From the NCBI RefSeq assembly GCF_000091665.1, contig NC_000909.1, forward strand, positions 503,581 through 535,580: a stretch of 32,000 nucleotides of DNA. Reading direction: 5' to 3'. Below the pieces are notes generated by a model. That model was not told the DNA's origin and searched no databases. It was given only the letters and a program-made list of their open reading frames with translations. Source of the DNA: Methanocaldococcus jannaschii DSM 2661 (GTDB lineage: Archaea > AGJL01 > Methanococci > Methanococcales > Methanocaldococcaceae). This document shows, piece after piece, positions 18,447 to 26,923 of this stretch. Every line of letters begins with the position of its first letter. Position 1 is the first letter of the stretch. Made by a program: the position numbers and the translations under genes.

Positions 18447-20561
18447 ATGTGGGGGAGGGATTATGAGCTTAAATATATTTCCTATCCAAAATCAGTTGCT
18501 ATTATTGGAGCTTCAAAAACTGAAGGAAAGGTTGGATATGCAATAATGAAAAATTTAAAAGACTTTAATGGAAAAATCTATCCCATAAATCCAAAATATG
18601 ATGAAATATTCGGAATAAAATGCTATAAATCAGTTTTGGACGTTGAGGATGACATAGATTTGGCAGTTATAGTAGTTCCAAATATTGTTGTTCCTAAGGT
18701 ATTGGAAGAATGTGGAAAAAAAGGGGTTAAAGGGGCTGTAATTATTACAGCTGGCTTTTCAGAAGTAGGAAATTATGAGTTGGAAAATAAAATTAAAGAA
18801 ATAGCAAAAAGATACAACATAAGAATTATAGGGCCTAATTGTTTAGGTATAATGAACACCCATATAAACTTAAATGCCACATTTGCGAAGGTATTTCCTC
18901 CAAAAGGAGGAGTTTCAATAATCTCACAAAGTGGGGCTGTTTTAAATGCCATATTAGACATAGCCCCTTTATTGAATATTGGCTTTTCTAAAGTTGTTAG
19001 CATTGGAAATAAAGCTGATATTCAGGAAAGTGATTTATTAGAGTATTTTTTAGATGATGAAGATACTAAGATAGTTGTTTTATACATAGAAGGATTAAAG
19101 GATAAGAGATTTTTAAAAGTAGCTAAAAAATTATCTAAGAAAAAGCCAATAATTGCCCTAAAATCTGGAAGAACTGAAGTAGGAAAGAAAGCGGCAAAAT
19201 CCCACACTGGCTCTTTAGCTGGAGAAGATGTTATCTATGAGGCAGCGTTTAAAGAAGCTGGGATAATTAGGGCATATACGTTTGAGGAGTTAGTTGATTT
19301 AATCCATTTATTCTCAACACAGCCAACAATAAGCTCAAATGAAATTGGAATAATAACAAATGCAGGAGGATTTGGAGTTTTAGCAGCTGATAGCTGTGTT
19401 GATTATAACATGAAGCTATCTAACTTTGAAAAATCAACAATAGAAAAGCTTAAAAATATTCTGCCACCAACTGCCAATATATCAAATCCATTGGATATTA
19501 TAGGAGATGCCACACCAGAGAGATATAAAAAGGTTATAGAAGTTTTAGCTGAAGATAGCAATGTTAAGGGGCTTTTAGTTATCTTAACTCCACAAGAGAT
19601 GACAAAACCATTAGAAGTTGCTAAATCTATTATAGAAGTTAAAAATTCCCATAAAGAATTTAAAAATAAACCGTTAATTACTTCATTTGTTGGAGGAGTT
19701 TCAGTTAAAGGAGCTAAAAGTTATTTAAGGAAGAATGGAATCCCTGCATACATAACTCCAGAAAATGGTGTCAAAGCCCTATCTCATCTCTATAAATATA
19801 GCTTAATGAAAGTTAAGGAAGATTATGATGAATACTTAGAAAATATTAAAGAAGAGTTCATAAAAATTACTGAAGAAAATAAAGAAATTATTAAAGAATT
19901 ATTATCAAATCCAAATGAATACACTGCTAAAAAATTATTAAGCATTTATGGTCTTCCAGTTCCTAAGGGCTATTTAGCTAAAAATGAAGATGAAGCTTTA
20001 GAATATTGCAAAAAATTAGGTAAATGCGTAATGAAAATTGTCTCACCACAAATAATACATAAAACGGAGGCAGGAGGAGTTATAATAAATCCAAAAAATC
20101 CTAAAGAGGCATTTAAAAAATTAATTGAAAATGCTAAGGAATATGCAAAAAGAATGGGCATTGATAATTTAATTATAGAGGGAGTGTTAGTTGAAGAGTT
20201 CATTGAGAAAGATATGATGGAAATTATAATAGGGGCTAAGAGGGATGATATTTTTGGCTCTGTAGTTATGGTTGGGTTAGGAGGAGTATTTGTTGAGGTT
20301 TTAAAAGATGTATCTTTTGGCATTTCGCCAATAACAAGGGACTTTGCTCATGAGATGTTGAGGGAATTGAAATCCTATAAAGTCTTAGAAGGCGTTAGAG
20401 GAAGACCTAAGAGAGATATTAACTTTATTGTTGATACCCTAATAAAGATTGGAGTATTTATGGATATTCACAAAGAGATTAAAGAGCTTGATTTAAACCC
20501 AGTATTTGTCTTTAATGAAAAAGAGGGAGGATGTATAGGTGATGCAAGAATAATTAAATAA
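18447..20561 (+). CDS. ADP-forming acetyl-CoA synthetase (acetate--CoA ligase), fused alpha-beta form
   Basis: PKSVAIIGAS...GKVGY CoA-binding N-terminus, the phosphohistidine loop KSHTGSLAG, and a C-terminal ATP-grasp domain (KIVSPQIIHKTEAGGV). Confidence 0.9.
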   Translation: MWGRDYELKYISYPKSVAIIGASKTEGKVGYAIMKNLKDFNGKIYPINPKYDEIFGIKCYKSVLDVEDDIDLAVIVVPNIVVPKVLEECGKKGVKGAVIITAGFSEVGNYELENKIKEIAKRYNIRIIGPNCLGIMNTHINLNATFAKVFPPKGGVSIISQSGAVLNAILDIAPLLNIGFSKVVSIGNKADIQESDLLEYFLDDEDTKIVVLYIEGLKDKRFLKVAKKLSKKKPIIALKSGRTEVGKKAAKSHTGSLAGEDVIYEAAFKEAGIIRAYTFEELVDLIHLFSTQPTISSNEIGIITNAGGFGVLAADSCVDYNMKLSNFEKSTIEKLKNILPPTANISNPLDIIGDATPERYKKVIEVLAEDSNVKGLLVILTPQEMTKPLEVAKSIIEVKNSHKEFKNKPLITSFVGGVSVKGAKSYLRKNGIPAYITPENGVKALSHLYKYSLMKVKEDYDEYLENIKEEFIKITEENKEIIKELLSNPNEYTAKKLLSIYGLPVPKGYLAKNEDEALEYCKKLGKCVMKIVSPQIIHKTEAGGVIINPKNPKEAFKKLIENAKEYAKRMGIDNLIIEGVLVEEFIEKDMMEIIIGAKRDDIFGSVVMVGLGGVFVEVLKDVSFGISPITRDFAHEMLRELKSYKVLEGVRGRPKRDINFIVDTLIKIGVFMDIHKEIKELDLNPVFVFNEKEGGCIGDARIIK

Positions 20562-20608
20562 ATTTAATTTATTTCTGAAAAAACAGATAAATCCACACAA
20601 TAATAGAA

Positions 20609-20642
20609 GCTAACCGGTCCCAAAATTGGGTTCCCGGTTAGC
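20609..20642 (-). promoter_or_regulatory. Archaeal SECIS element (cis-acting mRNA hairpin)
   Basis: The minus-strand RNA reads GCUAACCGG-GAA-CCC-AAUUUU-GGG-A-CCGGUUAGC. It has a 9-bp lower stem, a GAA/A internal loop, three G-C pairs and a 6-nt loop. It begins inside the last codon and stop codon of the selenoprotein ORF. Confidence 0.85.
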
Positions 20643-20925
20643 ACTCACTACTACCTTCTATCTTAAGATACTTTCCAAATATTGACCTTCTCAATGAGAT
20701 ATTAACTTCATCAAGCCATTGATCTGCTATGGGGTCAATATAAACTTTAAATTCATTATCGTAAATTAATTTATCATTTTCGTTGGGGTGGGCGATAGCT
20801 ATTCCAAACTTAGGACCTCCTCAAGCAAATCCTTCAAAGTATATAACTACTTTATCCTGATTAGCTTTCTTTAACTTATCTAAGATGAATTTCTTAGCTT
20901 CATCAGATATAACAACCTTCTTCAT
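20638..20925 (-). CDS. HesB/IscA-like selenoprotein (95 aa, Sec at codon 35 encoded by TGA at 20821-20823)
   Basis: An SD GGTGA (complement of 20932-20936) lies 6 nt before the ATG. Sequence MKKVVISDEAKKFILDKLKKANQDKVVIYFEGFA-U-GGPKFGIAIAHPNENDKLIYDNEFKVYIDPIADQWLDEVNISLRRSIFGKYLKIEGSSEC*. A SECIS element follows directly downstream. Confidence 0.85.
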
Positions 20926-21136
20926 TCCATATCACCACTTTTATTATAATCCTATATCTCATATATATAATTTATGGTTATGTCAATACTTAACACAACC
21001 ATATAAAATAAGACTATAAAAATAAAAATAAAAAAGAAAAGAATAAAAATAATAAGATATTATAATGAGATGAATTAGTTAAAAACATTAAGCTAATTAT
21101 TTAACTACTTTAAAATACTTATAATGGTGATATTTT

Positions 21137-21922
21137 ATGCAAATGGTACCTCCAAGTGCTTATGATAGGGCTATTACAGTGTTTAGCCCAGAAGGTAGAT
21201 TATATCAAGTAGAGTATGCAAGAGAGGCAGTGAGAAGAGGGACAACAGCGATAGGTATTGCCTGTAAAGATGGTGTAGTTTTAGCGGTAGATAGAAGAAT
21301 AACAAGCAAACTCGTAAAAATCAGGTCAATAGAAAAGATATTCCAAATTGACGACCACGTTGCTGCTGCTACCTCTGGATTGGTAGCTGATGCGAGAGTT
21401 TTAATAGATAGAGCGAGATTAGAAGCCCAAATTTACAGATTAACTTATGGAGAGGAAATATCAATTGAAATGCTGGCTAAAAAGATTTGTGATATTAAAC
21501 AAGCTTATACTCAACATGGTGGAGTTAGACCGTTTGGAGTTTCATTATTAATTGCTGGAATAGACAAAAATGAAGCAAGATTATTTGAAACAGACCCAAG
21601 TGGGGCTTTAATTGAATATAAAGCAACAGCAATAGGTAGTGGAAGACCCGTAGTTATGGAATTATTGGAGAAAGAGTATAGAGATGATATAACATTAGAT
21701 GAAGGTTTGGAATTAGCTATAACTGCTTTAACAAAAGCAAACGAAGACATAAAACCTGAAAATGTTGATGTTTGTATCATAACGGTTAAAGACGCACAAT
21801 TTAAAAAAATTCCTGTGGAAGAGATAAAAAAACTTATAGAAAAAGTTAAAAAGAAATTAAATGAAGAAAATAAGAAAGAGGAAGAGAATAGAGAAGAAAC
21901 TAAAGAAAAACAAGAAGAATAA
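21137..21922 (+). CDS. psmA: Proteasome alpha subunit
   Basis: [24 protein letters not shown] is the hallmark N-terminus. The C-terminal tail is K/E-rich. Confidence 0.97.
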
Positions 21923-26053: not shown

Positions 26054-26923
26054 ATGGAAGTTAAACCTTTTTTAAAATGGGCTGGAGGAAAAACACAAAT
26101 TTTAAGTCAAATAGAAGAAAATTTACCAAAAGAATTGAAGGAAGGAAACATTAAAAAATATATAGAACCCTTTGTTGGTGGAGGGGCAGTTTTATTTTAC
26201 CTTTTACAAAAATACGAATTTAAAAAAGTTATTATCAGTGATATTAACGAGGATTTGATGCTATGCTATAAAGTTGTTAAAAATGATGTCGATAGATTAA
26301 TTGAGGAGTTATCATCCTTAAGGGATGAATTTTTATCATTGGATGAAGAAAAAAGGAAAGAATTTTATTATAAAGTTAGAGATGACTTTAACAAAAACAA
26401 GAATGATTGTGATGAAGTTAAAAGAGTGGCACAGTTTATATTTTTAAATAAAACATGTTATAATGGGCTATATAGGGTTAATAAAAAAGGAGAATTTAAT
26501 GTTCCTTATGGAAGGTATAAAAACCCAAAGATTTTTGATGAACAAAATTTGAAAAATGTTTCAAAATTATTAAAGAACGTTAAAATCCTCTGTGGAGATT
26601 TTGAGATTGTTGATGAGTATGTTGATGCTGAAAGCTTTGTTTATTTCGATCCACCATATAAGCCGTTAAATAAAACATCTTCCTTCACATCCTATACAAA
26701 GTATGATTTTAACGATGATGATCAAATTAGATTGGCAAAATTTTATAGAAAATTGGATAAAAGAGGGGCTAAGTTGATGTTAAGCAACTCTTATAATGTT
26801 GATTTCTTTGGAAAGCTTTATGAGGGCTTTAATATAAAAAAGGTTGTTGCTAAGAGGATGATTAACTGCAAAGGAGATAAAAGAAAAGATGGTATATATG
26901 AGTTATTGATTATGAATTATTGA
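26054..26923 (+). CDS. mjaIIIM: Dam-family N6-adenine DNA methyltransferase (probable GATC specificity)
   Basis: The N-terminus PFLKWAGGKTQIL and the catalytic FVYFDPPY are as in E. coli Dam and DpnM. The gene symbol is from memory of REBASE/UniProt naming. Confidence 0.92.
   Translation: MEVKPFLKWAGGKTQILSQIEENLPKELKEGNIKKYIEPFVGGGAVLFYLLQKYEFKKVIISDINEDLMLCYKVVKNDVDRLIEELSSLRDEFLSLDEEKRKEFYYKVRDDFNKNKNDCDEVKRVAQFIFLNKTCYNGLYRVNKKGEFNVPYGRYKNPKIFDEQNLKNVSKLLKNVKILCGDFEIVDEYVDAESFVYFDPPYKPLNKTSSFTSYTKYDFNDDDQIRLAKFYRKLDKRGAKLMLSNSYNVDFFGKLYEGFNIKKVVAKRMINCKGDKRKDGIYELLIMNY

Follow-up and report, generated by a model that had tools for sequence, protein, structure and literature searches.

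Does the gap between the acs and psmA genes of Methanocaldococcus jannaschii hold a protein-coding gene, and how would a UGA inside its reading frame be read? We addressed this question in a stretch of 32,000 nucleotides (nt) from M. jannaschii DSM 2661 (NC_000909.1, positions 503,581 to 535,580 of the forward strand), referred to below as the window; coordinates are those of the window. Our analysis indicates that the locus is almost certainly the HesB-like selenoprotein gene of M. jannaschii, lying between acs and psmA, and that its internal UGA encodes selenocysteine (Sec). We assigned the gene to 20638..20925 on the minus strand based on its translation, its match to the family TIGR01911, full-length homologues, the ratio of nonsynonymous to synonymous differences per site (pN/pS) and the IscA/SufA fold. 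The UGA at 20821..20823 (minus strand) was assigned as Sec codon 35 based on its invariance in orthologous loci and on a Cys column in homologues. The selenocysteine insertion sequence (SECIS) element at 20609..20642, also on the minus strand, was assigned based on its fold z-score, its uniqueness in the window, covariation and the published features of methanogen SECIS elements.

A frame with one internal TGA

Translation of the minus strand gives a reading frame of 95 codons plus a TAA stop at 20638..20925. It starts with ATG at 20925-20923, ends with TAA at 20640-20638, and is interrupted only by TGA at 20823-20821, which is codon 35 and stands between VVIYFEGFA and GGPKFGIAIAHP. The read-through product is MKKVVISDEAKKFILDKLKKANQDKVVIYFEGFA-U-GGPKFGIAIAHPNENDKLIYDNEFKVYIDPIADQWLDEVNISLRRSIFGKYLKIEGSSEC. 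The three codons 3' of the TGA, GGA GGT CCT, encode G-G-P and yield U-G-G-P, in which the UxGP motif is present. Besides Sec35, the product contains a single cysteine, Cys95, with which the chain ends, and its Trp70 is encoded by TGG. An initial annotation of this DNA, made from the sequence alone, had placed a Shine-Dalgarno GGTGA, an ATG at 20925, a 95-codon frame and a TGA at 20821-20823 here, and all four are found where it had put them.

A selenoprotein family with the A-type carrier fold

We searched the read-through product against domain and protein collections, entering Sec as Cys in the domain scans. It matched TIGR01911 (HesB_rel_seleno, “HesB-like (seleno)protein”, NCBIfam) over the complete model (positions 1-92 of 92) with 141 bits and E = 1.4e-41, the cutoff being 66.35. 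When the two halves on either side of the TGA were scanned separately against Pfam, nothing significant was found. A word-indexed protein search returned six full-length homologues with 77-92% identity, all of which carry W at position 35, and the DNA confirms a TGA behind this W in P0003, P0006 and P0007.

To extend the family, a hidden Markov model (HMM) of the six homologues was compared with 1.84 billion cluster representatives, giving 37 relatives. The column G-x-G-[U]-G-G-P holds W in nearly all of them; the TGA behind it was confirmed by DNA for the Methanocaldococcus and M. maripaludis members only. From the sequences, we read the W column across the relatives as probably reflecting TGA translated under a code in which TGA means Trp. 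Two relatives carry Cys at the Sec column: P0013 (EGMSCGGPE), which belongs to the same subfamily, and P0032 (GGGCSGF, with a C-terminal CGC), which is of the classical IscA type. The C-terminal Cys is conserved in at least 90% of the family alignment.

The relationship to A-type Fe-S carriers became clear with the family profile. A single-sequence phmmer search of the PDB retrieved HI1723 alone (E = 0.23). The family profile matched, over its full length, HI1723 (3.9e-16) and AQ_1857 (1.8e-14), as well as E. coli IscA/YfhF (1.8e-8), IscA with [2Fe-2S] (7e-6) and SufA (2e-3). In this alignment, the Sec column coincides with the cysteine of the GGGCSGF motif of HI1723, AQ_1857 and E. coli IscA, that is, IscA Cys35, and Cys95 coincides with IscA Cys99, the first of the cysteines in the C-terminal motif. 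The expectation of the initial annotation that residue 35 occupies a ligand-Cys position of HesB/IscA proteins was thus borne out in P0013, P0032, HI1723, AQ_1857 and E. coli IscA. There is no equivalent of the third IscA ligand, Cys101, since the chain ends at C95.

An AlphaFold2 model of P0001 (92% identical to the window protein; 40 aligned sequences) reached a predicted local distance difference test score (pLDDT) of 93.2 and a predicted template modeling score (pTM) of 0.83. The top eight Foldseek matches of this model were all IscA, SufA, AQ_1857 or HI1723, with template modeling (TM) scores of 0.65-0.77 (0.72-0.78 for the matches to IscA/SufA) and a probability of 1.0; DsrR was also among the top matches. 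The HesB-like protein is therefore predicted to have the fold of the A-type Fe-S carriers (IscA/SufA), and Sec35 lies in a turn between two beta strands, at the position of the IscA ligand Cys35. Compared with IscA/SufA/ErpA (PF01521; PDB 1s98, 1r94, 1x0g, 2d2a, 2apn and 1nwb), the fold is the same and U35 and C95 correspond to C35 and C99. However, Sec replaces the first ligand Cys, the surrounding motif is G-F-x-U-G-G-P instead of G-G-G-C-S-G-F, and the third ligand, Cys101 of CxC, has no counterpart.

The W in the databases raises the alternative that the UGA is read as Trp, or as another standard amino acid, and not as Sec. The six close homologues with W at position 35 would fit this, as would the rarity of TGA as a stop codon in the window, where it ends only one of 27 long open reading frames (ORFs; TAA ends 24 and TAG 2). 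However, TGA does terminate an ORF of 289 codons at 26921-26923, the same protein uses TGG for its Trp70, and in the Cys-type homologues and the IscA structures the column matches Cys and never a genuine TGG-encoded Trp. A canonical SECIS element accompanies the gene, as described below, and Methanococcales are established Sec decoders with the standard code (PMC2933860, PMC5054222). We consider the chance that this UGA specifies a standard amino acid to be negligible.

Constraint on both sides of the TGA in orthologous loci

We next compared the locus with its orthologues at the DNA level. Eight distinct orthologous loci were read, seven from Methanocaldococcus and one from M. maripaludis. 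They comprise L001, L002, L003 and L004 from Methanocaldococcus spp., L009/L010 from an M. lauensis-like organism (by psmA cluster), L011 from M. fervens (identical psmA product) and L012-L015 from M. maripaludis (psmA product identical to PSA_METMP). A genome scan with an exact peptide pattern retrieved five close Methanocaldococcus loci and none from other genera, and M. maripaludis was reached through the HMM search of cluster representatives.

In all eight loci, TGA occupies the same codon and an open, conserved frame continues past it. Relative to the window, the 60 codons after the TGA show synonymous differences (pS) of 0.49-0.61 and nonsynonymous differences (pN) of 0.04-0.09 per site, which gives a pN/pS of 0.07-0.14, and about 75% of the differences after the TGA fall on third codon positions. 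Counting both sides of the TGA, pN/pS is 0.07-0.24, and constraint is no weaker in the codons that follow the TGA than in the 34 that precede it. From these substitution patterns, the codons after the TGA appear to be under strong purifying selection. Conservation past the TGA in other Methanococcales, which the initial annotation had proposed as a check, is thus seen in every locus compared. From Methanocaldococcus to Methanococcus, psmA, the HesB-like gene and acs retain the same arrangement (psmA<-|hesB->|<-acs) wherever the downstream flank is available, except in L004.

These data bear on the possibility that the locus is a pseudogene, in which a Cys-type HesB gene acquired a TGA nonsense mutation and now yields a 34-residue peptide or nothing, the downstream hairpin being an unrelated terminator. 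Stop-to-stop ORF calling does yield only a 34-amino-acid (aa) ORF, the N-terminal piece at 20821..20925, and L004 has lost the SECIS yet keeps the TGA, as a decaying gene might. Against this, the TGA is invariant in eight distinct loci of two genera whose synonymous sites have diverged by about 55%, and the 60 codons after it, at a pN/pS of 0.07-0.14, are held more tightly than the 34 codons before it. Furthermore, the same column is almost always W, read here as TGA, across bacteria and archaea, and the protein made from the M. maripaludis orthologue has been labelled with 75Se. A pseudogene is scarcely credible on this evidence. Because the TGA is conserved, the codons past it are constrained, TGA serves as a stop elsewhere and Trp70 is encoded by TGG, neither a pseudogene nor decoding as Trp is tenable.

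A SECIS element at the end of the frame

The hairpin on the minus strand at 20642-20609 spans 34 nt and reads GCUAACCGG-GAA-CCC-AAUUUU-GGG-A-CCGGUUAGC. Its basal stem has 9 base pairs (bp), formed by 20642-20634 with 20617-20609. Above it, a GAA bulge (20633-20631) faces a single bulged A (20618), followed by an apical clamp of CCC (20630-20628) paired with GGG (20621-20619) and a loop of AAUUUU (20627-20622). The initial annotation had described a hairpin with a GAA/A internal loop and three G-C pairs that begins in the last codon and stop codon, and this is the structure we find.

The hairpin folds at -26.2 kcal/mol, compared with -13.8 +/- 2.8 for shuffled sequences (z = -4.5), and none of 200 shuffles was as good. 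Its core, GAACCC-N(3-12)-GGGAC, occurs once in the 32 kb, where 0.02 occurrences are expected. Its GC content of 56%, compared with 30.6% for the window, is reached by only 0.4% of all 34-nt windows, in agreement with its earlier description as one of very few GC-rich non-coding patches. A covariance model of the element (R1) scored 67 bits at this site, with the next sense-strand match anywhere below 10 bits; since R1 was built from these same orthologues, the scores demonstrate uniqueness within the window and not family membership.

Comparison across seven loci showed which parts of the hairpin are held constant. The GAA, the opposing A and the CCC/GGG clamp are invariant. The loop varies, from AAUUUU in the window to ACUU, GUUU, UUUAU and UAAAUA in orthologues. 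The basal stem covaries, with a C-G pair replaced by U-A in L009 and CCGG/CCGG replaced by UUAA/UUAA in M. maripaludis, and it shows wobble changes in L003 and L011. In the alignment of the seven loci, 96% of cells are paired and both partners have changed in 5 of the 12 pairs; such pairing and covariation values did not occur in any of 500 shuffles, and sliding the register collapsed the pairing.

Published methanogen SECIS elements have a basal stem with a GC clamp and two to three C-G pairs above the bulge (PMC13188914, PMC5054222, PMC11881835). Mutagenesis defined a purine-only, kink-turn-like GAA/A bulge in which the two A's and the opposing A are essential, and the loop is 4-6 nt long, non-conserved and mostly A/U (PMC11881835). 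The distance between UGA and SECIS in archaea ranges from 80 to 1300 nt (PMC2933860). The window element is a sense-strand stem-loop at the 3' end of the gene with a GAA/A bulge, C-G pairs above it, a basal stem of at least 3 bp and an A/U loop, and about 180 nt separate the UGA from its 5' base, a distance within the published range. The archaeal SECIS features that the initial annotation had asked to be checked are thus all present, and the hairpin is kept with compensatory changes in seven of the eight loci, including M. maripaludis. Compared with the 3' untranslated region (UTR) SECIS elements of fruA and sps in M. maripaludis and M. jannaschii, it has the same GAA/A loop, three C-G pairs and GC clamp, and shares the 6-nt A/U loop and the position in the mRNA 3' of the ORF at such a distance from the UGA.

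One difference from those elements is that the basal stem shares 5 nt (20638-20642) with the ORF, namely the last two nt of the Cys95 codon and the UAA. A SECIS located directly after a stop codon is functional (PMC9622424). Because of this overlap, the C-terminal Cys codon is under both protein and RNA constraint, and a ribosome that terminates here has to open the SECIS at its base. We also observed that the C-terminal Cys codon of M. fervens has changed from TGC to TGT, turning a C-G pair into U-G, and that in M. maripaludis an outer GCUGU/ACAGC helix spans the last two Cys codons (L012 2789-2797).

Could the gene encode a selenoprotein while the hairpin at 20642-20609 serves only to end or stabilize the transcript, the true recoding signal lying elsewhere? 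The hairpin does occupy the 3' end of the gene, with T-rich sequence behind it as in a terminator-like element, and Rfam did not recognize it. Archaeal termination needs oligo-T only. However, the positions that are essential by mutagenesis (the two A's of GAA, the opposing A and the apical GC clamp) are the invariant ones across the seven loci and the rest varies or covaries, a pattern specific to SECIS elements and not to generic terminators, and no other SECIS-like element was found on the strand of the gene in the window. We therefore regard such a displaced signal as very unlikely and retain the hairpin as the SECIS element.

Relation to previously described genes

The gene is not new. 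M. jannaschii has eight selenoprotein genes including a HesB-like one, as stated in PMC5054222, which cites Kryukov & Gladyshev 2004. The HesB-like protein of M. maripaludis was established as a selenoprotein by mutagenesis and 75Se labelling, according to the passage of PMC11097638 citing Stock et al. 2010, and it also appears in Table 1 of PMC2933860. The family is widespread in anaerobic bacteria (PMC1794560), and a 2026 review lists TIGR01911 with the UxGP motif (PMC13188914). The initial annotation had pointed to a reported HesB-like selenoprotein of Methanococcales, and the literature agrees. The gene is real and was correctly interpreted, it has been known since 2004, and we claim no discovery for it.

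The verified M. maripaludis gene and the window gene are syntenic orthologues. Both proteins (MMJJ_08070 in M. maripaludis) belong to TIGR01911, match in length (95 aa in M. jannaschii versus 98 aa in M. maripaludis) and share the UxGP Sec motif, the C-terminal Cys and the psmA/acs neighborhood, and in both genes the SECIS begins in the last codons. They differ in that amino acid identity is only 39%, and in the C terminus, where M. jannaschii ends in a single Cys (SSEC) and M. maripaludis in CC. The basal stem of the SECIS is GC-rich (CCGG/CCGG) in M. jannaschii, whereas it is AU-rich (UUAA/UUAA) in M. maripaludis. None of these is a categorical difference.

Evidence that weighs against the assignment

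Six observations pull in the other direction. First, unlike the PF01521 carriers, the single HesB-like sequence stays below the Pfam gathering score: the full read-through product scored 22.4 bits with Fe-S_biosyn (PF01521; E = 1.5e-4), the gathering threshold being 26.3. Second, a scan of 20300-21200 with Rfam 15 (E <= 10) reported no SECIS family, a result that we hold to be uninformative either way; we take it to mean that no Rfam model fits this type of element. The matches that the same scan did report (6A, IMES-3, uxuA, sR46 and RMST_9) are at chance level and were discarded. Third, a disruption mutant of the hesB-like gene of M. maripaludis still fixed nitrogen, and the function of the protein is described as unclear (PMC11097638). 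Fourth, the protein has just two of the three ligands that are canonical for A-type carriers. Fifth, the 75Se data concern the 39%-identical M. maripaludis orthologue and not the M. jannaschii gene (the passage of PMC11097638 citing Stock et al. 2010). Sixth, L004, the locus of Methanocaldococcus sp. 28A, has no recognizable SECIS within 3 kb on either side, as judged by R1 with filters off (best score 9.4 bits) and by a descriptor scan.

The L004 locus (CP187540.1, about 605,990-606,935; L004 3283-3950) encodes an orthologue with 81% identity, an intact frame of 95 codons and the TGA in place. The initial annotation had held that a relative keeping the TGA without the hairpin would speak against its reading; seven of the eight loci keep both, and L004 is literally a locus with the one and not the other. 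Its sequence diverges right after GCTAAC, 1 nt past the stop codon, and the half of the SECIS that is missing corresponds to GGGAACCC...GGGACCGGTTAGC. The SECIS site is occupied by a perfect hairpin, CCGUUUCCCAUUUUCAUAG…CUAUGAAAAUGGGAAACGG, that has a stem of about 21 bp and folds at -36 kcal/mol (z = -5.7). It is followed by a 162-aa fragment of a DDE transposase (DDE_Tnp_1, PF01609, 40 bits) and by unrelated genes in place of acs. The sequence of this hairpin is absent from the 32-kb window of M. jannaschii. Two substitutes for the SECIS were considered and rejected. The hairpin associated with the insertion sequence (IS) has the 5' GAA and lacks the opposing bulged A of a canonical SECIS. 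An AAA/A structure with two GC pairs, found with a relaxed descriptor at L004 1539-1570, lies 1.4 kb upstream, beyond the divergent psmA, and is attributed to chance.

The simplest reading is that a recent IS-mediated rearrangement orphaned the L004 gene from its SECIS. The pN/pS after the TGA in L004 is 0.14, at the top of the range (equal to L009) and far from neutral. L004 represents either a very recent loss of function or UGA recoding that proceeds without a canonical SECIS. Because the break falls exactly at the SECIS, a transposase fragment follows and downstream synteny is lost, L004 looks like a secondary disruption that leaves the case for the window gene as strong as before. The transposase-bearing insertion that replaces a SECIS beside an intact TGA-containing ORF in Methanocaldococcus sp. 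28A is an observation that is new to us.

Proposed expression and possible role of the protein

Expression of the gene may be pictured as follows. The minus strand would be transcribed from an AT-rich promoter of the TATA type, and ribosomes would initiate at AUG 20925, which a GGUGAU Shine-Dalgarno sequence precedes. At UGA codon 35, Sec would be inserted from Sec-tRNA(Sec) delivered by archaeal SelB, and this recoding would be licensed by the SECIS, which lies about 180 nt further on, where the 3' UTR begins, both steps following the established archaeal mechanism. Translation would then end at a UAA (20640-20638) that forms part of the SECIS basal stem.

By analogy with the A-type carriers, the protein, probably a dimer, would most likely use Sec and Cys to bind or transfer iron, an Fe-S cluster or a chalcogen; this role is speculative. 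An Fe-S carrier role is an analogy because the protein has two of the three A-type ligands only. The presence of only Sec35 and the C-terminal Cys95 also suggests another idea, namely that the protein acts as a selenenylsulfide-forming redox relay or a chalcogen (S/Se) relay and not as an Fe-S carrier. In addition or independently, the terminating ribosome might melt the SECIS, so that roughly one ribosome at a time could decode Sec on the 60-codon downstream segment. Both ideas are drawn from the anatomy of the gene and its product, and we consider them, taken together, rather unlikely. The two-ligand arrangement of U35 and C95 offers a reasonable starting point for biochemistry.

Handling of the gene in public annotation

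The initial annotation had warned that such a gene is easily mis-annotated, and the public records support this. An ORF that corresponds exactly to the 34-aa N-terminal piece has been called in JGI/IMG, and its cluster includes a near-identical member, also of 34 aa, named “hypothetical protein”. Overall, the gene is handled in three ways: as a 34-aa ORF ending at the TGA, as a 95-aa product with Trp at the Sec position, or as a named HesB-like protein. The last name is given by the NCBI pipeline to a partial Methanocaldococcus copy, MEO2117707.1 (“HesB-like protein”). Among public genome and metagenome calls (clusters P0001-P0007 and most of P0008-P0043), Trp stands at the Sec position almost throughout, apparently where automatic gene callers translated TGA as Trp.

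The value of the locus is practical and not conceptual, as a stop-to-stop ORF track silently loses a genuine gene. For selenoprotein searches, an invariant W that aligns with Cys should count as a flag for Sec. With its in-frame TGA, 3' GAA/A hairpin and Cys homologues, the locus provides a clean positive control for detecting selenoproteins in raw sequence.

Genomic surroundings and minor features

The neighboring genes are the acs ORF at 18447-20561 and psmA at 21137-21922, both on the plus strand, which we take to be MJ0590 and MJ0591, respectively. The psmA product is identical to PSA_METJA (Q60177, AAB98581.1, WP_010870095.1). The gap between the two ORFs measures 575 bp, where 576 bp had been given, and, as had been claimed, it is not empty, holding the frame that matches TIGR01911.

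A Shine-Dalgarno-like GGTGAT, read directly at 20931..20936 (minus strand), lies 5 nt 5' of the ATG and probably serves in initiation; every orthologous locus has GGTGAT 2-6 nt 5' of its ATG. A candidate archaeal TATA box, TTATATATA, was likewise read at 20962..20970 (minus strand) and ends about 37 nt 5' of the ATG as part of a putative promoter. Similar TATATA(T/A) boxes occupy the same relative place in L009, L011 and L012. A promoter and terminator scan for sigma-70 uses a bacterial model that is inapplicable to archaeal promoters. Downstream, an oligo-T run, TTTTTT, at 20578..20583 (minus strand) is a candidate transcription terminator. It lies about 25 nt 3' of the SECIS, inside the 47-nt spacer ahead of the convergent acs stop, and the SECIS is followed by T-rich tracts in all orthologues.

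No tRNA, and hence no tRNA-Sec, was found in the 32-kb window with ARAGORN. The single long ORF of the window that ends in TGA spans 26054-26923 on the plus strand (289 codons, TGA at 26921-26923). The next ORF begins 20 nt on in another frame, and no SECIS-like element is nearby; this TGA looks like an ordinary stop and not like a second Sec codon.

Finally, the terminator-like scan alone flagged an imperfect AT-rich inverted repeat of 14 bp at 20973-21003 on the minus strand, TATGGTTGTGTTAAG…ATAACCATA. It adjoins the putative TATA box on its upstream side, within the divergent intergenic region of psmA and the HesB-like gene, and could be an operator or an element of promoter architecture.

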